Below, piece after piece: positions 3,251 to 60,737 of a DNA stretch of 64,000 nt. Both the position numbers and the translations under genes were made by a program. Origin of the DNA: Escherichia phage KIT01. Positions within the stretch are counted from its first letter, which is position 1, and each line of letters opens with the position of its first letter. The DNA is taken from the sequence record AP019521.1; one strand, 5' to 3'. The notes below the pieces were generated by a model. That model was not told the origin of the DNA and did not search any database. It worked only from the letters and a program-made list of their open reading frames with translations.

Positions 3251-3500
3251 CGTTATAAGCATCCTTGATGCATGATTCAGCCATATGAATTAATGTTTCT
3301 GGAGTATCATCTACCATTACATTAAAGCTAAATTCCACAGCCCAATCGGTAGCAACATAAACTTTAATAAGCTCGTTGGTATCGCGAGTGCTCACGGCTT
3401 CAAACCAGAACTTAATTGTATTAGGTTGTCCGTCGTCATCAATAACGATACAGTCGTGTTCTAGTTCAAGGCCTGATTTTTTGAATTCATCTAAAGTCAT
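3237..3500 (-). CDS. hypothetical protein (46.1-like)
   Basis: 87-aa ORF coupled between 47 and 46 with ATGA overlap to gp47 stop. Confidence 0.5.
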   Translation of the reverse strand: MTLDEFKKSGLELEHDCIVIDDDGQPNTIKFWFEAVSTRDTNELIKVYVATDWAVEFSFNVMVDDTPETLIHMAESCIKDAYNDEDF

Positions 3501-4519
3501 CGTGTAACCTCATTATAAAGTTGCGCGGCCATAGTCTTAAGGGCTTTAACATCATCTTCAGTGTGGCCGTCAGGAAGGGCATCGATATAATCATACATCA
3601 TATCCAAGAGGGACTTAACTTCATCTTCCTCTTCAGAATCATCGATATCAACACTGTTATCTACCTTAGACACAATACGTAAAGAATGGACAACCTTTTC
3701 AAGCTCTGATTCGAACTTAGTAAGTCCATCATCGATTTTATCGACTATAACACGAACTGCGATATTTGTAAAATCTTTGTAATCGATAGTCGCATTTGGA
3801 TAATGAATCTTACGGTGCCAACAGGTTTCATTGATGATGAAATCCATCTTATGAGTTTCTGTATCGAAAATCCAGAAGCCGCGAGGGTCATTCTCATCAC
3901 CTGCAGTTAGGGTCCAGGGCGTACCAATATACTTAACGTTTGCTGCATCAGAAATAGTGTGGAAGTGGCCTGACCAAACCTGCTTATATCTCTTAAGGAA
4001 ATCAGGTTCTAAACCATGGGATTTCATTCCTTTATAGAAATAGAAACCATTTAATTCCCAGTGACCTATACAGAAATCTGCCGTGGTATTTTTGATATGG
4101 TCCATGATATCAGTCGTGTTTTCTTCACACATCCATGGAATCAAATCAATTTCGGTGCCATCAAAATTAACAGTAGTAGGTTTCTCGTAAACAGTAAAAT
4201 TTTCATACTGAGTAAGAAGTTCAGAAACTGCATTAGGAGTTATGCTATTTTTAAACGTTGCATCATGGTTACCAATTATAACATGGACTTTAATACCTGC
4301 ATCGCTGATAATTTCCACCAGACCACGATTAAATTCCATACATTTATGGGTGATAGCCTTGCGTACATCGAACCAATCACCATATTGAATCCATGTATCA
4401 ATATTGTTTGCTTTAGAATATTCTACAGCCTGTTTAATACCGTTAAGCTGGATTTTCTGAATCCAAGGGTCATCGGCTTTTACTCCGATATGCAAATCAC
4501 CTATATTCAAAATTTTCAT
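3497..4519 (-). CDS. 47: recombination endonuclease subunit gp47 (Mre11/SbcD-like phosphoesterase)
   Basis: MKILNIGDLHIG...GNHD metallophosphatase motifs; upstream partner of gp46. Confidence 0.9.
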   Translation of the reverse strand: MKILNIGDLHIGVKADDPWIQKIQLNGIKQAVEYSKANNIDTWIQYGDWFDVRKAITHKCMEFNRGLVEIISDAGIKVHVIIGNHDATFKNSITPNAVSELLTQYENFTVYEKPTTVNFDGTEIDLIPWMCEENTTDIMDHIKNTTADFCIGHWELNGFYFYKGMKSHGLEPDFLKRYKQVWSGHFHTISDAANVKYIGTPWTLTAGDENDPRGFWIFDTETHKMDFIINETCWHRKIHYPNATIDYKDFTNIAVRVIVDKIDDGLTKFESELEKVVHSLRIVSKVDNSVDIDDSEEEDEVKSLLDMMYDYIDALPDGHTEDDVKALKTMAAQLYNEVTR

Positions 4520-6139: not shown

Positions 6140-6370
6140 TTAATCCTTTGGAGTCAATTCAATAGTGAAGTAGAAATTAGCGTTCTCAACATGATAACGA
6201 TAATCTACGTTATTGTCAGGAGAAGTGAATTCAATATTCCTGACGTTAAGTGGGTCAATATCAATAGGAAGGCCTTTAACATCCCGTAATATCAATTTAA
6301 TAAAATAAGGGAGTGCTTCGAAGTCTTCCATTCCATCTAAAAGTGGAGTGATATTAATCTGATGTTCCAT
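6140..6370 (-). CDS. hypothetical small protein
   Basis: ORF track 6140..6406 starts at GTG and overlaps gene 55; ATG at 6370 used; no clear RBS. Confidence 0.3.
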
Positions 6371-6911
6371 ATAAAAAATCCAGTTCACCAACTTTAGGTT
6401 CGGCACTCTTATCAGACCCTGGTGCTTTAGTTAAAGAGGTTTCATACTGAGTCATTTTGTCGTAGATATCTTGGATAAAGGTTTCATCTGCAATACCTAC
6501 CATGTCGTCATCATTACTGTCATAGACATTATGGACGAAGTAGCTATATTTCTTTGCCATTTCTTTACGTTCTTTTTTGATACGCTGAACGAAGGCATTA
6601 AAACAAGCCATAGTGATATATGCATGTGGGTTGTCGTATTTTGTTTCGTCGAAGTTGTGAAGACCTTTAATCGAAGCTTCGATTCCATCAGCAATCATTT
6701 CTTGCTTCCAAGATTGGGTATATCCTGAGAAGTTGAAACGTTTACTTAGTCCTTCAGCAATGAGCATAATAGCCAAGCCAATAACGTCGTTCTGGCGAAC
6801 TATTTTATTAGGATCGGTATTTTCTCTGAGCTCTGTTTTCCATTGGGTGATAGCTTTCAGAAGCTCCTTATTATTTACATAGTTATTTTTAGTCAGTTTA
6901 ATTTCGGTCAT
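6354..6911 (-). CDS. 55: late-transcription sigma factor gp55
   Basis: 185 aa; NYVNNKELL...[41 protein letters not shown] matches T4 gp55 closely. Confidence 0.9.
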
Positions 6912-35962: not shown

Positions 35963-36020
35963 CTCCTTCACACTGTTGTTTTGATAGGTCTATAGTATCA
36001 TGTTTAAAGGAGGTGTAAAC
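35963..36020 (-). promoter_or_regulatory. early promoter (PeSL-like)
   Basis: GTTTAC(36015-36020)-17 nt-TACTAT(35992-35997); CTCCTT/AAGGAG arms. Confidence 0.5.
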
Positions 36021-36079
36021 AACTTTGTGAAATTATTTTTAGTTTAAACCCCCAAAAAGGAGACCGAAGTCTCCTTTCA

Positions 36080-36688
36080 TTATTTACGAGTCTTTTCGAA
36101 CTGTGCTGCGTCACCTGCAAGGCGGCCCGCTTGGCGAAGTTTGTTATTGATTTCTTCGCGCATAGGCTGGGTATACTTAAGGCCTTCAACCGTCAGATAG
36201 AGACGATACAGGTCTGGGGTATCCAGGTTGTTAATGTGTTGACCATTACGAAGAGCGTTGAATTCACGAACAAGGTGTTTAGTTTCAGATTCGATTTCAG
36301 AAACTAAAGAAGCCAGTTGGTTATATTTTTTAACTATAGTGCTGGTGTCAAACTTGATTTTAGATTTAGGAGCTTCTTTTACAGGTTCTGGTTTAGGCGT
36401 CGGTTTCGGTGTTGCAACTTTGGGCTGAGCCGCAGGTTTAGCAACAGGAGCTTTAGCAGGTTTAGCAGCGCCACCAGCTACTATATCTTTAAAAGCTTTG
36501 GAAGCTTTGTAATATTCTTTCTGGCTGCTAGTATCAAAACCATACATATCATAGACGTTTTTAAAGAATTCGGTGGTGGTTTTAGTCCCAGAAATTTTAT
36601 CATAAGCTGCTTGCCACATATCTTTAGTCATGCGGATGCCGGCTTCACTCAGAACGCTTTCGTTCAAAAATTCATTGTAAGTTTTCAT
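36080..36688 (-). CDS. capsid-targeted internal protein with Ala/Pro-rich linker
   Basis: 202 aa; N-terminus MKTYNEFLNE; central AKPAKAPVAKPAAQPKVATPKPTPKPEP; late promoter upstream. Confidence 0.55.
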   Translation of the reverse strand: MKTYNEFLNESVLSEAGIRMTKDMWQAAYDKISGTKTTTEFFKNVYDMYGFDTSSQKEYYKASKAFKDIVAGGAAKPAKAPVAKPAAQPKVATPKPTPKPEPVKEAPKSKIKFDTSTIVKKYNQLASLVSEIESETKHLVREFNALRNGQHINNLDTPDLYRLYLTVEGLKYTQPMREEINNKLRQAGRLAGDAAQFEKTRK

Positions 36689-36716
36689 TGGTATTTCCTA
36701 AGTTAATTAACTTATC

Positions 36717-36752
36717 TATTTATACAAAAAGCCCAACCTTTCGGAAGGGCCG
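36717..36752 (-). promoter_or_regulatory. terminator hairpin fused to late promoter TATAAATA (module copy 1)
   Basis: minus strand: hairpin (36726-36752) then T-run overlapping TATAAATA (36717-36724), 29 nt upstream of ATG 36688. Confidence 0.55.
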
Positions 36753-36756
36753 TGAA

Positions 36757-37311
36757 TCAATTCTTATAGAATCGGAACGGGTTTACGTGGAAGGCTAACA
36801 TAGCCTTAGGGATTTTACGAGACAAAAGACTCTTAAGTTTCCAACCGCAGTATACTCGTAGGTAAAAGGTAATCCCACCAACCTTAAGATATGGAACCGA
36901 AGCAAAGACTCCCCAGGCGTCGTCATTCCACATCCATAGCCACCCATGATGAGCTTTATCAGGAGAACCTGATTCCACATCGGGATTACCACGATAATGG
37001 AATTCTGAGCTACAATCACGGCCGAGTTTATGGTAAGCAAAGTTATAAGCTTTATTTCGCCACAACCAGGCTACTCGTTGAAGGTATATGCCTAAAGGTA
37101 GTTTTCTTATTTTAGCCCAACGTTTAATGTGACCTTTATCACCGTCAATTGGATTATCGTATGTCATCATCCAATCAAAGCCGTACGGCAATTTACCAGT
37201 CTTTTTATTGTGGAAAGGAACTACAAAAGGTGCAAGGATAACAGCCAGAACCATAGAGATAAAATCTAGTGGGACCAACAGAACCCAACTCAAATATTTT
37301 AAAAGTTTCAT
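36757..37311 (-). CDS. late-expressed membrane-anchored protein of unknown function
   Basis: 184 aa; N-terminal TM MKLLKYLSWVLLVPLDFISMVLAVILAPFVVPF; AGGAAATAAT RBS; flanked by the two module copies. Confidence 0.5.
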   Translation of the reverse strand: MKLLKYLSWVLLVPLDFISMVLAVILAPFVVPFHNKKTGKLPYGFDWMMTYDNPIDGDKGHIKRWAKIRKLPLGIYLQRVAWLWRNKAYNFAYHKLGRDCSSEFHYRGNPDVESGSPDKAHHGWLWMWNDDAWGVFASVPYLKVGGITFYLRVYCGWKLKSLLSRKIPKAMLAFHVNPFRFYKN

Positions 37312-37337
37312 ATTATTTCCTAAGTTAGTTTACTACA

Positions 37338-37376
37338 TATTTATACAAAAAAGGCCCAACCTTTCGGAAGGGCCTT
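37338..37376 (-). promoter_or_regulatory. terminator hairpin fused to late promoter TATAAATA (module copy 2)
   Basis: near-identical to copy 1: hairpin 37351-37376, TATAAATA at 37338-37345. Confidence 0.55.
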
Positions 37377-37383
37377 TAACCTA

Positions 37384-37756
37384 GGGTAACCTTGTCGGGG
37401 TTCCACCTGCTAGGCAAGTGTTTGTACGAAACGCCAGGATTCGAACCCGGTTATTAAGTAGTTGACGCTACTCAATATTTTTAAAAGGCCATATCTCGAC
37501 CATATCCGAACGTTCCGTCAAAAACGCTACTCGGCTTACGGCAAAGATATTTCCTCGAATCGATAATTAGGTGCGCCGTTTCTGCTGTGATGTAAGGGGA
37601 CGTTAACAGATCGTAAAGATTTGTTAATGCCAGTCCTTACTCAGGGAACATCAGTCCGACGACTTACCGGTAGCGACCCGGTTTCTTGTTTGTTGCGCCG
37701 GTGAATGCTGGTAATCAGTCTTCATACGACGGCTTGACTATATAATAGTCTTCATT
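37384..37756 (-). ncRNA. structured non-coding RNA region downstream of the tRNAs (possible small stable RNAs, includes a tRNA-like T-arm)
   Basis: no ORF; GGTTCGAATCC T-loop-like element near 37432-37447 with acceptor-like pairing but no standard anticodon arm; bounded by terminator at 37351-37376. Confidence 0.3.
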
Positions 37757-37831
37757 TGGTATCCCGCCCTGGGATCGAACCAGGACCGCAAACTTAGAAG
37801 GATCGTATGCTATCCATTACACCAGCGGGAC
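37757..37831 (-). tRNA. tRNA-Arg (anticodon UCU)
   Basis: hand-folded cloverleaf: acceptor GTCCCGC/GCGGGAT, T-arm CCTGG-TTCGATC-CCAGG, anticodon loop CTTCTAA, encoded ACCA 3' end. Confidence 0.7.
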
Positions 37832-37836
37832 GTAGT

Positions 37837-37913
37837 TGGTGACCCAGACCAGATTTGAACTGGTAACCTTTCCCTTATGAGGGGACTGCTGCTAACCATT
37901 GAGCTACAGGGCC
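37837..37913 (-). tRNA. tRNA with CAU anticodon (Met, or Ile if lysidine-modified)
   Basis: hand-folded: T-arm ACCAG-TTCAAAT-CTGGT, anticodon loop CTCATAA, encoded CCA; 5 nt from tRNA-Arg. Confidence 0.65.
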
Positions 37914-39311: not shown

Positions 39312-39584
39312 TTATTTTAAATAAATTGCATATTTTTTATAACCAGCCGTCTCGTGACGCAGTCCTTTTTCATTAGCAAAACGTTCAATATTGTTAATTT
39401 GATTCTGGTCGAGTTCTGAAGTATCAAAAACAAAAAAGTTTCGCTTATTGCCTAAAGTTACGTGATTAGTCAAATCGATGTTATAGAGATGATTTATATC
39501 ATCAATCATAGTCTTAACAGATTTGTTAATTTTTACTTCTTCATTAAGAAGAGATTCAGCGATAAATTCTTGGTATGATTTCAT
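39312..39584 (-). CDS. capsid-targeted internal protein (IPI position)
   Basis: 90 aa; N-terminus MKSYQEFIAE; adjacent to 57B as T4 ipI. Confidence 0.55.
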   Translation of the reverse strand: MKSYQEFIAESLLNEEVKINKSVKTMIDDINHLYNIDLTNHVTLGNKRNFFVFDTSELDQNQINNIERFANEKGLRHETAGYKKYAIYLK

Positions 39585-39585
39585 T

Positions 39586-39810
39586 TTATTCAGCGCCAGC
39601 GGCTTTCAAAAGTTTTTTAAGGTTGGCTATGCCGCCAGCAGAAAACGTGACCTTGCCACCTTTTTCATTGATAGAGCCAGTCAATTTAGCAAGCTTATCA
39701 CTAGGGACTTTTTTAAAATCAGCCAGTGTGCCATCAAAGGTTTTTGTAACAATTGGCAGTTCATCTTCATGTCTTTTAGCTTCGGTGATAAATTCTTGAT
39801 AAGTTTTCAT
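39586..39810 (-). CDS. capsid-targeted internal protein (CTS leader)
   Basis: ATG 39810 gives MKTYQEFITEAKR...; GGAGAATAAA RBS. Confidence 0.55.
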   Translation of the reverse strand: MKTYQEFITEAKRHEDELPIVTKTFDGTLADFKKVPSDKLAKLTGSINEKGGKVTFSAGGIANLKKLLKAAGAE

Positions 39811-39841
39811 TTTATTCTCCATTTCACTCTGTTGTTTTGAT

Positions 39842-58157: not shown

Positions 58158-59747
58158 ATGATTAACAAATTGGAACTTAGTGAGTTACCATTTGTTGACG
58201 GCGTACCTGATGCTCCTCAAAAGCGTATCCAATGGATACGCGAGGGTGATTGTATGTCTGCAGCAAAAACAAAATACGGCAATGAAGGTAATTTGAACGC
58301 TGCTGCTTTAGGAGTTCAGAAAAACGTTGAAGCTCTTGATGCGAATGATTTGAAAACCGCAGATAAAGTTAACGAACTGGTAGAAAACGTTAATAATATC
58401 AATGATGCCTTAGAAATGGCTACGGATATTTCCGTCATCCAACAAATTGAGAAAAACCGTGTTGATATCGTAGAGCTTAAGAGAGTAGAAGGCGAAACCA
58501 CTACTGGGCTAAACAATTTAACCATAAATTTAGACCACCTAAAAGAAGACGTTGGTTACCATGACCCTTTACAAGATGGCCCATATTTAACTGTACGTGA
58601 AAATATTGTTCTTCTTAAAACCGAAATAGGTCATTATGAAAACCAGGATATAAATGGCAATCCATTGCCTCCTGGTGAAACCAGCGAAGCCACCGGTATG
58701 AAACGTCGCATCATTGATAATACCACTCAATTGGTCGACCATCGTCTTCGCATTGATACCCTTGAAAGGAATTATGAAGATTCTGACGTCGGGCAACTAG
58801 GTATTAAATTAAATGAAATTCGTGCTGAACTTGGGCCTCATTCTGATACTGTAGGTAAACAACCGGCTTATACCCGAATTTCTGTATTAGAAACGGCTGC
58901 AATTAATTTTAATACATCTATTGACGAAATTAAGGCTGATATTGATTTCTCTGGTATGCCTATAAAGGACCGAGTAACTACTTTAGAAAGCAAAACTCTT
59001 ACCCTAGAAAATTCAGTCAACGTTGATTTAAGCCCTCGTGTAACATCAATTGAAACCCAAATAGGTTCTGAATCAACTCCTACTTCTATTAATGGACGTT
59101 TAAGCGGTCTTCGTACTGATGTAAATGACCTTAAAACCATAGTGGGTGTTAGTTCAAGTGATGGCTTACGTTTCCAAGTTACTGATATCAACCGCCGTTT
59201 AGGTAGTGAAGTATCTCCGGCAGCTGGGACCATTAATAAGCGTTTAAATGACGTTATTATCCAAGCAAACCAATCTACTTCATCTATCCAGGATATTCAA
59301 GTAGAAATTGGAAATAACCAATCCGGTATTAAGGGTACTTTACTTAAACTCACCAATAAGGTTGATGGGACAAACCCTAACGGTGCTACTGTAGAAGAAC
59401 GTGGTCTTATTAACGCGGTTACTTCTTTAGAAACCCAGATGTTAGGTAAGTTGAATGATGCCCCTTCCGATGGTAAGCTTTATGCTCGTCGTAATGCTAC
59501 ATGGACCGAAGTTCCTAACGTTTCTACTGAAATAGGGACCGTTAAAGCTGATTTAGTTGTTACCGATGGTAATGTGGCAGCTTTAACTTCTAGAGTTACT
59601 GCAGCAGAAGATAAAATCACTGCATTAGAAACTGAACTTGCTAAACGTCCACCGGTGGCTCCAGTTGCTGATGGACTTCCGTATGTTCTTGTTGATAATG
59701 CATGGGTGTTATTGTCAGATTTTGTGACTTTAAACCCAGCACCATAA
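58158..59747 (+). CDS. wac: fibritin (whisker antigen control) Wac
   Basis: 529-aa coiled coil ending in a foldon-like DGLPYVLVDNAWVLLSDFV. Confidence 0.85.
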   Translation: MINKLELSELPFVDGVPDAPQKRIQWIREGDCMSAAKTKYGNEGNLNAAALGVQKNVEALDANDLKTADKVNELVENVNNINDALEMATDISVIQQIEKNRVDIVELKRVEGETTTGLNNLTINLDHLKEDVGYHDPLQDGPYLTVRENIVLLKTEIGHYENQDINGNPLPPGETSEATGMKRRIIDNTTQLVDHRLRIDTLERNYEDSDVGQLGIKLNEIRAELGPHSDTVGKQPAYTRISVLETAAINFNTSIDEIKADIDFSGMPIKDRVTTLESKTLTLENSVNVDLSPRVTSIETQIGSESTPTSINGRLSGLRTDVNDLKTIVGVSSSDGLRFQVTDINRRLGSEVSPAAGTINKRLNDVIIQANQSTSSIQDIQVEIGNNQSGIKGTLLKLTNKVDGTNPNGATVEERGLINAVTSLETQMLGKLNDAPSDGKLYARRNATWTEVPNVSTEIGTVKADLVVTDGNVAALTSRVTAAEDKITALETELAKRPPVAPVADGLPYVLVDNAWVLLSDFVTLNPAP

Positions 59748-59750
59748 TAA

Positions 59751-59770
59751 AAGGGCTTCGGCCCTTTTTT
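59751..59770 (+). terminator. rho-independent terminator after wac
   Basis: AAGGGC-TTCG-GCCCTT hairpin followed by TTTTTT. Confidence 0.6.
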
Positions 59771-59772
59771 GC

Positions 59773-59780
59773 TATAAATA
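59773..59780 (+). promoter_or_regulatory. late promoter TATAAATA for gene 13
   Basis: exact TATAAATA 22 nt upstream of the gene 13 ATG. Confidence 0.6.
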
Positions 59781-59801
59781 CGGTTATTAGAGGAATAAAC
59801 C

Positions 59802-60737
59802 ATGGCAAGTGAATCATATAACCCTAAGCAACTCAAGGACGCAATCCTGCGCCGCCTGGGTGCACCGATTACGAATATTGAAGTAACTACAGACCAAGTA
59901 TACGATTGCATCCAGCGCGCCCTGGAGCTCTACGGTGAGTATCATTATAACGGCTATAACAAAGGTTATCAGGCTTTTTATATAGGTCATGATGACGAAG
60001 AAAAATTCCGTAACGGCGTATTTGACCTTAAAGGCCGTAATATATTTGCGGTAACACAAATTTTAAGAACTAATGTAGGTTCTTTAACATCTATGGATGG
60101 CCAAGCGACTTATCCATGGTTTACTGATTTTGTATTAGGCCTAGCTGGTATTAATGGTGGTCTTGGAACTTCTTGTAACAGCTTTGGGCCTAATGCCTTC
60201 GGTGCCGACCTTGGGTATTTTACACAATTAATGCAATATCGTTCTATGATGCAAGACCTTTTGGTTCCATTGCCTGATTATTGGTATAACGATGCCACCG
60301 AACAATTGAAGGTAATGGGTAACTTTGTTAAAGGCGATTTTATTGTAATTGAAGTTTATACTCGCTCTTTTAATGGGGTTGATTCTATGGTAGGAAATAC
60401 CGCAGGATATGGATATGCCTCTGGTGGGTGCGACGAAAATGAATGGAGCCCTGGAGCTATTTGGGATAACCCGGCTCGTCGTATTTCAGGTATGAGGGCA
60501 GGTGAAGACCTTGGTTTGCAAGATGGTTCATATAATAACCGCTGGGTCAAAGATTATGCCACGGCATTGGTTAAAGAAGTCAATGGTAATATTTTGGCCA
60601 AACACCAAGGCATGCAACTTGCAGGTGGAACCACCGTAGATGGTATTCGATTGATTGAAGAAGCTCGTTTAGAAAAAGAACGTCTTCGCGAAGAATTAGA
60701 TTTACTCGACCCACCAACACCTATTTTAATTGGATAA
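59802..60737 (+). CDS. 13: neck protein gp13
   Basis: 311 aa, position and size of T4 gp13. Confidence 0.8.

Follow-up and report, generated by a model that had tools for sequence, protein, structure and literature searches.

The repeated module and its cargo genes

The stretch of Escherichia phage KIT01 DNA analyzed here (sequence record AP019521.1; 64,000 nucleotides (nt), hereafter the window) carries two copies of a composite element, designated module A and module B, each of which joins a predicted terminator hairpin to a T4-type late promoter box, TATAAATA, and a translation leader. The surrounding 2.4 kb are those of a Dhakavirus, a group of JS98-like T4-type phages of E. coli, with phage AnYang as the top match (96%). 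All elements of the locus lie on the minus strand. In the order of transcription, orf90, tRNA-Met, tRNA-Arg, rnaD, and rnaC precede module A, which is followed by an open reading frame (ORF) of 184 amino acids (aa) and module B, and then by a 202-aa ORF, a UUCG-loop terminator, an early sigma-70-type promoter, and the genes e.8, orf133, and e.6. The modules and the two genes behind them comprise the following features:

37306..37374, minus strand: module copy A, 69 nt
37353-37374, minus strand: hairpin of module A, GGCCCTTCCGAAAGGTTGGGCC, located by folding
37347-37352, minus strand: run of six T of module A
37338-37345, minus strand: late-promoter box TATAAATA of module A, exact match
37314-37327, minus strand: leader TAACTTAGGAAATA of module A
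37309-37311, minus strand: start codon of the DUF7338 gene, inside module A
Upstream of hairpin A, minus strand: CCTAGGTTA
36757..37311, minus strand: cargo gene 1, encoding a 184-aa DUF7338 protein (PF24027, phrog_2143) with an N-terminal transmembrane helix
36683..36751, minus strand: module copy B, 69 nt
36731-36751, minus strand: hairpin of module B, GGCCCTTCCGAAAGGTTGGGC, located by folding
36726-36730, minus strand: run of five T of module B
36717-36724, minus strand: late-promoter box TATAAATA of module B, exact match
36692-36705, minus strand: leader TAACTTAGGAAATA of module B
36686-36688, minus strand: start codon of the internal-protein gene, inside module B
36080..36688, minus strand: cargo gene 2, encoding a 202-aa putative internal head protein with the leader MKTYNEFLNE (phrog_2280)

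A preliminary description of this DNA had pointed to two near-identical elements of about 40 bp on the minus strand, each with a GNRA-type hairpin and TATAAATA, and both are present where it placed them. The repeat is longer than described: 61 of 71 aligned positions are identical from the hairpin through ATGAAA, and each copy consists of a hairpin with a GAAA tetraloop, a T-run, TATAAATA, the leader, and ATGAAA. The copies lie 623 bp apart, and the 70 nt flanking them on each side are only about 49% identical between the copies, which corresponds to the background level. Within the window the 21-nt hairpin core GGCCCTTCCGAAAGGTTGGGC occurs exactly twice (36731-36751 and 37354-37374), and the 14-nt leader TAACTTAGGAAATA is found without mismatches at the two module sites only.

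Terminators with GAAA or UUCG tetraloops are common before late promoters in T4-type genomes, and two such look-alikes could have arisen independently, by chance or convergence. This explanation is effectively refuted. The 21-nt core is expected 0 times by chance (100 shuffles, even with three mismatches permitted), the similarity runs over 69 nt including a leader unique to both sites, and the same paired arrangement is found in three genera, as described below. We likewise rejected the hairpin as a dispersed repeat, because T4 has a single copy and the window none outside the two modules.

Folding gave the same architecture for both hairpins: the outer stem is G+C, the internal loop 2x2 (U.U), and the tetraloop C(GAAA)G. 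The energies are -17.9 kcal/mol for A and -12.8 kcal/mol for B (z-scores -3.0 and -2.1), and the hairpins are followed by six and five U, respectively. They are therefore predicted intrinsic terminators, i.e. G+C-rich stem-loops directly before a U-run. A simple terminator scan detected neither module hairpin because of the internal loop, and folding was required to find them. Behind both hairpins TATAAATA comes after TTTTT(T)G, at about -10 and without a -35 element, and it is the sole promoter box of the module, since a sigma-70 promoter scan yielded none at either copy. At the T4-type late box, which depends on gp55, gp33, and gp45, RNA polymerase containing gp55 starts replication-coupled transcription a few bases downstream late in infection. 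The phage encodes a gp55 homolog in the window (6357-6911, 79% identical to that of T4), and the lysozyme gene e retains TATAAATA just upstream, as in T4. We thus regard TATAAATA in both modules as a predicted late promoter.

In line with the preliminary description, the gene between the modules encodes a 184-aa protein with a membrane anchor, and no T4 homolog was found. The protein matches the DUF7338 profile (PF24027) over residues 1-183 with 214 bits, the gathering cut-off being 27, as well as phrog_2143 (E 4e-79). Its single N-terminal hydrophobic helix spans residues 3-35 (Kyte-Doolittle peak 2.44). The predicted structure shows a helix at residues 2-33 followed by a small helical region and an antiparallel sheet, with a mean predicted local distance difference test score (pLDDT) of 95.5. 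Invariant motifs of the family include T-x-D-N-P-I-D-G-D-x-G-H, W-L-W-R-N-K-A-Y-N, and G-W-K. The full T4 genome was assembled from five pieces for the search; tblastn gave no match better than E 0.26, and a search of the six-frame ORFs with a profile of 29 family members found nothing. The G+C content of the DUF7338 gene, 0.409, is typical of the window (0.392 +/- 0.026, standard deviation), so that base composition gave a negative answer as to a foreign origin.

DUF7338 also occurs in unrelated phage groups, among them Felixounavirus, RB43-like phages, jumbo phages, and one prophage. In five virulent enterobacterial genera (Dhaka-, Gapriver-, Gelderland-, and Karamvirus and the unrelated Felixounavirus) it lies within or directly after tRNA clusters; its coordinates in the respective locus pieces are 701-1258 in PG7, 701-1258 in Alf5, and 695-1255 in STP4-a. 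A functional tie to tRNA clusters is weakened by Mosigvirus, RB43, and five distant homologs, in which the gene is not near them. In a Chitinivorax prophage and a metagenomic contig (pieces 3001-3525 and 3001-3579) it directly follows tail-fiber or fiber-chaperone genes, the usual place of envelope-modifying cargo. Some records label the protein 'holin' or 'structural protein', with no visible basis.

The second module precedes, as had likewise been noted, a 202-aa gene with a capsid-targeting sequence. Similarity to T4 is confined to the capsid-targeting leaders of ipIII and ipII, and the MKTYNEFLNE start conforms to the leader of about ten residues, MKTYQEFIAE type and ending in Glu, which is the established mark of T4 internal proteins. 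The product is thus a putative internal head protein; those of T4 are packaged in the capsid, and the gp21 protease removes their leader. The 202-aa protein contains a low-complexity linker rich in Ala, Pro, and Lys, AAKPAKAPVAKPAAQPKVATPKPTPKPEPVKEAPK (ORF part at 36340-36470). The helical segment behind it matches the COMP coiled-coil family weakly, below threshold (E 0.018).

Allelic states of the locus and probable exchange at the repeats

The variable locus, its conserved borders, and the adjoining stable-RNA block show these further features:

35992..36019, minus strand: early sigma-70-type promoter of e.8 (TTTACA, 16 nt, TACTAT), the right-hand border of the variable locus
36056..36077, minus strand: third terminator, the UUCG-tetraloop hairpin AAAGGAGACTTCGGTCTCCTTT with T-run (-13.9 kcal/mol), which closes the internal-protein cassette
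37425..37563, minus strand: rnaC homolog (species 1 RNA), 98.6% identical to T4 rnaC over 139 nt, the left-hand border of the variable locus
37570..37686, minus strand: rnaD homolog (species 2 RNA), 88% identical to T4 rnaD
37757-37831, minus strand: tRNA-Arg(TCT), and 37837-37913, minus strand: tRNA-Met(CAT), the head of the stable-RNA block

In 13 phages, the homologous locus was annotated with the proteins of the window, and the hairpins were located. Such a comparison had been proposed as a check of the preliminary description, and it revealed that DUF7338 is polymorphic for presence and absence. Between rnaC and the e.8 promoter we observed at least six configurations in Dhakavirus:

Configuration 1, FB: hairpin only, then directly the e.8 early promoter
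Configuration 2, the window, AnYang, and JS98, and by junction search IME281, NC-G, UP19, MN04, and B-01: module A, DUF7338, module B, the 202-aa gene, UUCG terminator
Configuration 3, IME08, and by junction search SHP1, vB_EcoM_005, dhaeg, dhabil, CLB_P2, and C6: one module, then the 202-aa gene; no DUF7338
Configuration 4, PSD9, MX01, and JS10 (the last also without e.8): module A, DUF7338, a hairpin without TATAAATA, then the early promoter; no internal-protein gene
Configuration 5, WG01: module A; a different gene (154 aa) that shares the capsid-targeting leader; an unrelated terminator; DUF7338, which lacks a TATAAATA of its own; hairpin
Configuration 6, PSD2002 and IME341: like WG01, but with only the first five and the last sixteen codons of DUF7338 left, fused to each other

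The e.8 early promoter directly follows a hairpin in PSD9, MX01, WG01, and PSD2002 as it does in FB. In total, the junction searches retrieved the two-copy junction from 11 database records and the single chimeric one from about 11. Scanning viral contigs for the hairpin with TATAAATA yielded just 11 stretches and added little. The DUF7338 pseudogene of configuration 6 (PSD2002 1681-1745 and IME341 3594-3641, in the coordinates of their own locus pieces) retains the downstream hairpin. It shows that phages can do without the gene and that its loss need not involve exchange between repeats.

DUF7338 is optional, and the internal-protein gene is an optional cassette of its own, absent in PSD9, MX01, JS10, and FB and replaced in WG01 by the 154-aa gene. 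The late box in turn behaves as part of the cargo, judging from its distribution: TATAAATA is present where a gene follows the hairpin (the window, JS98, AnYang, IME08, WG01, RB68, NHEP10, and LF82-5) and absent where none follows (T4, FB, ATK47, and hairpin B of PSD9, MX01, JS10, and WG01).

T4 contains the homolog of hairpin A, GCCCCGACCGAAAGGTTGGGGC followed by TTTTT, about 50 nt after rnaC, as the single member of its family in the genome, with neither TATAAATA nor a gene between it and the e.8 promoter. The T4 spacer aligns to 37343-37424 of the window at 83.5%, and FB likewise has the hairpin once, with no gene behind it. The T4-type hairpin is annotated 'terminator' in several Tequatrovirus records, and approximately 475 database records match it at 80-90% identity. 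Moreover, the outer stem covaries by genus, being GGCCC/GGGCC in Dhakavirus and GCCCC/GGGGC in Tequatro-, Mosig-, and Gaprivervirus, which argues that the hairpin structure is under selection. By homology, hairpin A is the resident rnaC terminator that ends the tRNA/rnaD/rnaC unit and is conserved across Tevenvirinae. As it is conserved after rnaC and present in T4 and FB without the cassette, it was not imported with the latter.

The junctions of empty or single-module sites were compared with those of occupied or two-module relatives, where copy 1 and copy 2 denote the upstream and downstream repeat:

IME08 (single module) versus JS98: upstream 196/200 to copy A (copy B 42/200); downstream of TATAAATA 192/200 to copy B (copy A 58/200)
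FB (empty) versus PSD9: upstream 144/151 to copy 1; downstream 136/153 to copy 2
T4 (empty) versus RB68 (Tequatrovirus): upstream 194/200 to copy 1; downstream 139/150 to copy 2
ATK47 (empty) versus LF82-5 (Mosigvirus): upstream 148/150 to copy 1; downstream 143/150 to copy 2

In all four pairs the boundaries of the insertion or deletion coincide with the repeats, and the empty site keeps exactly one copy. The module of IME08 is chimeric: its left flank is that of copy A, its right flank that of copy B. It combines the six-T run of copy A with the GATAAG of copy B, which confines the exchange to GTATAAATA.

The paired bracketing recurs in three genera. In the Tequatrovirus RB68 the rnaC hairpin is followed by TATAAATA, a 157-aa internal-protein gene, a second hairpin copy, and then T4-like sequence. 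In the Mosigvirus LF82-5 DUF7338 resides at another locus, after the lysis-inhibition gene rI, between two identical hairpins 623 bp apart. This site is occupied in 23 Mosigvirus records, and most of the other 170 matching records (including about 22 of the 40 sampled) are 623 bp shorter; the shorter form of ATK47 has a single hairpin of the same family. The late box and leader of DUF7338 are homologous in Dhakavirus and Mosigvirus (TATAAATA..GTAAACTAA..GGA.ATA..ATGAAA.TTTTAAAATAT), suggesting that the promoter travels with the gene. At the level of sequence comparison, these data demonstrate the repeat, the coincidence of indel boundaries with it in three genera, a chimeric single-module allele, and the ancestry of hairpin A. 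Given their position at the indel boundaries and the at least six configurations, the repeats are best read as substrates or footprints of homologous recombination.

Apart from the modules, the stable-RNA block varies as well. A search against Rfam at permissive threshold retrieved only the two tRNAs in the locus, and rnaC and rnaD were located by alignment to T4. The identity of the rnaC homolog to T4 far exceeds that of its neighbors (rnaD 88%, proteins 50-80%); the gene is missing in JS10 and apparently in JS98 and IME08, where the end of rnaD joins the segment preceding the hairpin. This pattern suggests recent lateral exchange or very strong constraint on the RNA. AnYang and IME341 contain a homing-endonuclease gene in the tRNA/small-RNA block (3291-3956 and 2074-2733, respectively, in their own locus pieces), which is absent from the window and could, as a neighbor, help to spread adjacent alleles in mixed infections. 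About 70 nt between tRNA-Arg and rnaD (37687-37756) are unassigned in the window.

The two leaders were also compared among the close relatives. The leader of copy B equals that of copy A in the window and AnYang and has diverged to TAACACAGGAAACA in JS98 and IME08. Gene conversion between the two modules in the lineage of the window is possible.

Proposed mechanism and competing explanations

We consider it likely that the composite module of about 69 nt, consisting of terminator, late promoter, and leader, both regulates late cargo and mediates its shuffling by recombination, and that it represents a late counterpart of the promoter-early stem-loop (PeSL) elements. The hairpin and U-run would stop upstream transcripts, i.e. 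the early/middle tRNA-rnaD-rnaC unit at copy A and the DUF7338 message at copy B, and TATAAATA, located 1 nt past the U-run, would let the gp55-carrying RNA polymerase restart. With a stop and a restart at each module, each cargo gene would be expressed late as its own unit. As the stem of copy B is weaker, some read-through may pass there. Because the module is repeated, it would also offer tens of bases of portable homology to the phage recombination system. A crossover between the copies would excise the intervening gene and leave one chimeric module; within one genome, the products would be a circle and the chimera. The reverse reaction, or an unequal crossover between co-infecting genomes, would insert a cassette at a resident hairpin and thereby duplicate the hairpin. 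The upstream copy is the ancestral rnaC terminator, and the mobile part would comprise TATAAATA, the leader, the gene, and the second hairpin. The outcome would be a variable rnaC-e.8 locus for late accessory genes such as those for the DUF7338 membrane protein and the internal head proteins.

The preliminary description had suggested an insulated, late-expressed, moron-like cassette inserted after the tRNA/ncRNA block. Several elements of this proposal hold: the gene is optional, has its own late box and a hairpin on each side, and follows the tRNAs, rnaD, and rnaC. With hairpin A being resident, though, the modules are not just insulation borne by the cassette. In its strict form, the proposal would have a self-contained cassette arrive with both modules, which would serve to insulate late expression and have no role in mobility. 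In favor of this, DUF7338 is absent in T4 and present in unrelated phage groups, and promoter and terminator signals occur on both sides of the gene, reminiscent of the morons described by Hendrix et al. 2000, as summarized in PMC2839356, i.e. single extra genes with a promoter and a terminator and a patchy distribution in relatives. We nevertheless deem it unlikely, because the hairpin of copy A is the rnaC terminator that T4 and FB possess without any cassette, because each empty site keeps a single copy whose left flank is that of copy 1 and whose right flank is that of copy 2, and because the hairpin variant follows the host genus and not the gene. The label 'moron-like' is a poor fit in itself. 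DUF7338 differs from morons in that it lies in a virulent phage in the same orientation as its neighbors, shows no compositional anomaly, and is inserted at a homologous repeat and not at an arbitrary site. Unlike in classical morons, the promoter needs the late sigma factor gp55 of the phage itself, so that expression would not be independent of the lytic program, as that of morons is, typically from a prophage. Nor is the G+C content atypical, as it often is in morons.

Alternatively, the indels could stem from homing-endonuclease co-conversion or illegitimate recombination in a hot region, the modules being bystanders that are alike through shared regulatory function. The adjacent tRNA block of T4 (segB), AnYang, and IME341 does contain seg-type homing endonuclease genes, and the deletion in PSD2002 and the loss of the internal-protein cassette took place without long flanking repeats. 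Conversion driven by an endonuclease, however, spreads alleles; direct repeats placed exactly at the borders of a cassette are not among its products. The rI locus of Mosigvirus is bracketed in the same way, and no endonuclease gene is annotated in its 6 kb. Furthermore, the identity between the copies covers functionally unconstrained positions, namely the U.U internal loop, the exact T-run/G junction, and the leader. We therefore hold this explanation to be improbable.

Several observations weigh against the proposed dual role of the modules and have to be reconciled with it. With 8 occurrences versus 8.2 expected, the octamer TATAAATA shows no enrichment in the window, so that the case rests on the repeat and its position and not on the octamer count. 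The empty-site hairpin of ATK47 (approximately 750-775), which is the rI terminator, shares the stem and the U.U internal loop with the copies of LF82-5 (3002 and 3625) but has a TTAT loop, whereas both LF82-5 copies have GAAA. A single crossover predicts one TTAT copy; to account for two GAAA copies, gene conversion, a double exchange, or a recipient with another allele is needed. The homology is short, since without TATAAATA the repeat of hairpin and T-run amounts to just 27-30 nt. Not every DUF7338 gene is bracketed by the same hairpin: in the Gaprivervirus RZ the order hairpin-TATAAATC-DUF7338 is followed by an unrelated terminator. In WG01 DUF7338 lacks its own TATAAATA. Loss of the 202-aa cassette, from the type of the window to that of PSD9, lacks an obvious long flanking repeat and displays T-run/G junctions only, and the internal deletion of PSD2002 is not bounded by long repeats either. 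Each of the events may have been an insertion or a deletion. Finally, we infer initiation at TATAAATA and termination at the hairpins from the sequence, and circular intermediates by analogy to the mini-circles known from RB49 and phi1.

The context of DUF7338 differs further in other phages. In the Karamvirus PG7 it is preceded by a different hairpin and ATAAATA, in RB43 by a UUCG hairpin with no late box, and in the Felixounavirus Alf5 it lies bare within the tRNA cluster.

A more far-reaching version of the recombination model would make the rnaC-type hairpin family, defined by stem, UU.UU internal loop, and CC-tetraloop-GG, a dedicated landing pad for cassettes of TATAAATA, leader, gene, and hairpin. 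We put this forward tentatively and with some doubt. If true, cassettes would excise as small circles and could re-enter at any resident hairpin, including those at other loci, such as the rI terminator of Mosigvirus, and in other genera. The hairpins would then constitute a second, late-phase shuffling system, parallel to the PeSLs, for virion-delivered internal proteins and envelope proteins like DUF7338.

Relation to known modular elements

In T4-type phages, PeSLs act as mobile regulatory cassettes (Arbiol et al. 2010, PMC2839356; Comeau et al. 2014, PMC4122927). Two such motifs flank an ORF in one phage, while a single chimeric motif is found in another, and mini-circles were detected by inverse PCR in RB49 and phi1, the only phages for which they have been described (PMC2839356, PMC4122927). 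The recombination arm of our model is the mechanism demonstrated there. The modules resemble them in several respects. Both are short intergenic motifs of terminator and promoter, and in both module copies the hairpin and T-run stand directly before the promoter box. The copies flank non-essential ORFs in a variable region, with relatives that retain one chimeric motif (four pairs), and recombination between neighboring copies is the proposed cause in both systems. In contrast to PeSLs, which are defined by a strong sigma-70-like early promoter with -35 and -10 boxes, the modules carry the late box TATAAATA without a -35 element, the translation leader belongs to their repeat, one of the copies is the conserved terminator of a stable RNA, and the cargo is presumably late. 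Neither PMC2839356 nor PMC4122927 mentions late promoters. The neighborhood also contains genuine early promoter/stem-loop motifs, which precede e.8 and the internal-protein genes at 39312-39822.

The latter are two small genes with capsid-targeting leaders (MKTYQEFITE, 78 aa, and MKSYQEFIAE, 90 aa) on the minus strand at the position of T4 ipI. They have an early-type promoter (GTTTAC..TACTAT) upstream and not a late box, and another early promoter follows them, a layout that matches the PeSL-like organization of the classical internal-protein locus. The 202-aa and the 154/157-aa cargo genes resemble T4 ipI, ipII, and ipIII in that they begin with a leader of the MKTY(N/Q)EF type and vary among close relatives. 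The T4 genes, however, are located behind early-type promoters with embedded stem-loops, and the internal-protein genes at the rnaC locus behind a late promoter; the latter thus represents a distinct arrangement.

Junctions of a terminator and a late promoter are as such ordinary in T4-type genomes. In T4, the composites before genes 9 and 36 likewise consist of a G+C hairpin with a T-run and TATAAATA within a few bases, and they resemble each other although they are 68 kb apart (T4 87187 and 155837). Unlike the modules, they lie between essential structural genes, far from each other, and are not known to bracket optional genes. The two near-identical modules, in contrast, surround a dispensable gene at a distance of 623 bp. 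The window contains a further composite of this kind at 59773 on the plus strand (59720-59830), comprising GGGCTTCGGCCC, TTTTTTGC, and TATAAATA, about 25 nt before an ATG.

For e, soc, 49, and I-TevI of T4, the longer early transcripts form a structure that includes the late promoter and masks the ribosome-binding site (PMC3014915). A comparable situation is suggested for module A, where CCUAGGUUA upstream of the hairpin can pair with the UAACUUAGG of the leader in read-through RNA (37285-37400, minus strand). This pairing covers the start of the Shine-Dalgarno sequence and lengthens the terminator stem so that it encloses the late promoter; a transcript from TATAAATA of module A would be without the upstream pairing arm. 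The sole variation seen, a U-to-C change in the leader of PSD9, makes the pairing perfect and is thus a strengthening one. In contrast to the T4 examples, the masking fold is weakly supported at copy A (z -1.9, not significant) and was not seen for copy B, so that ribosome-binding-site masking at copy A is suggestive and to be regarded as a lead and not as a finding.

Taken together, the element is a late-promoter variant of known modular shuffling elements, anchored on the rnaC terminator. It extends their principle to late genes and overturns nothing. Internal head proteins are injected anti-defense factors, and late membrane proteins can alter the envelope of the infected cell. DUF7338, a widespread phage membrane protein without structural relatives, is herewith flagged as a mobile accessory gene. 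The rnaC-e.8 site represents a natural, presumably insulated and late-expressed slot into which payloads could be engineered when T4-like phages are used for therapy. The rapid swapping of accessory genes in T4-type phages is only partly understood, and the known PeSL mechanism concerns early genes. The locus provides a natural series of alleles, with empty, single, double, and replaced cargo and a chimeric junction, which recurs in three genera and indicates that a module of terminator and late promoter can fill a PeSL-like role for late genes.

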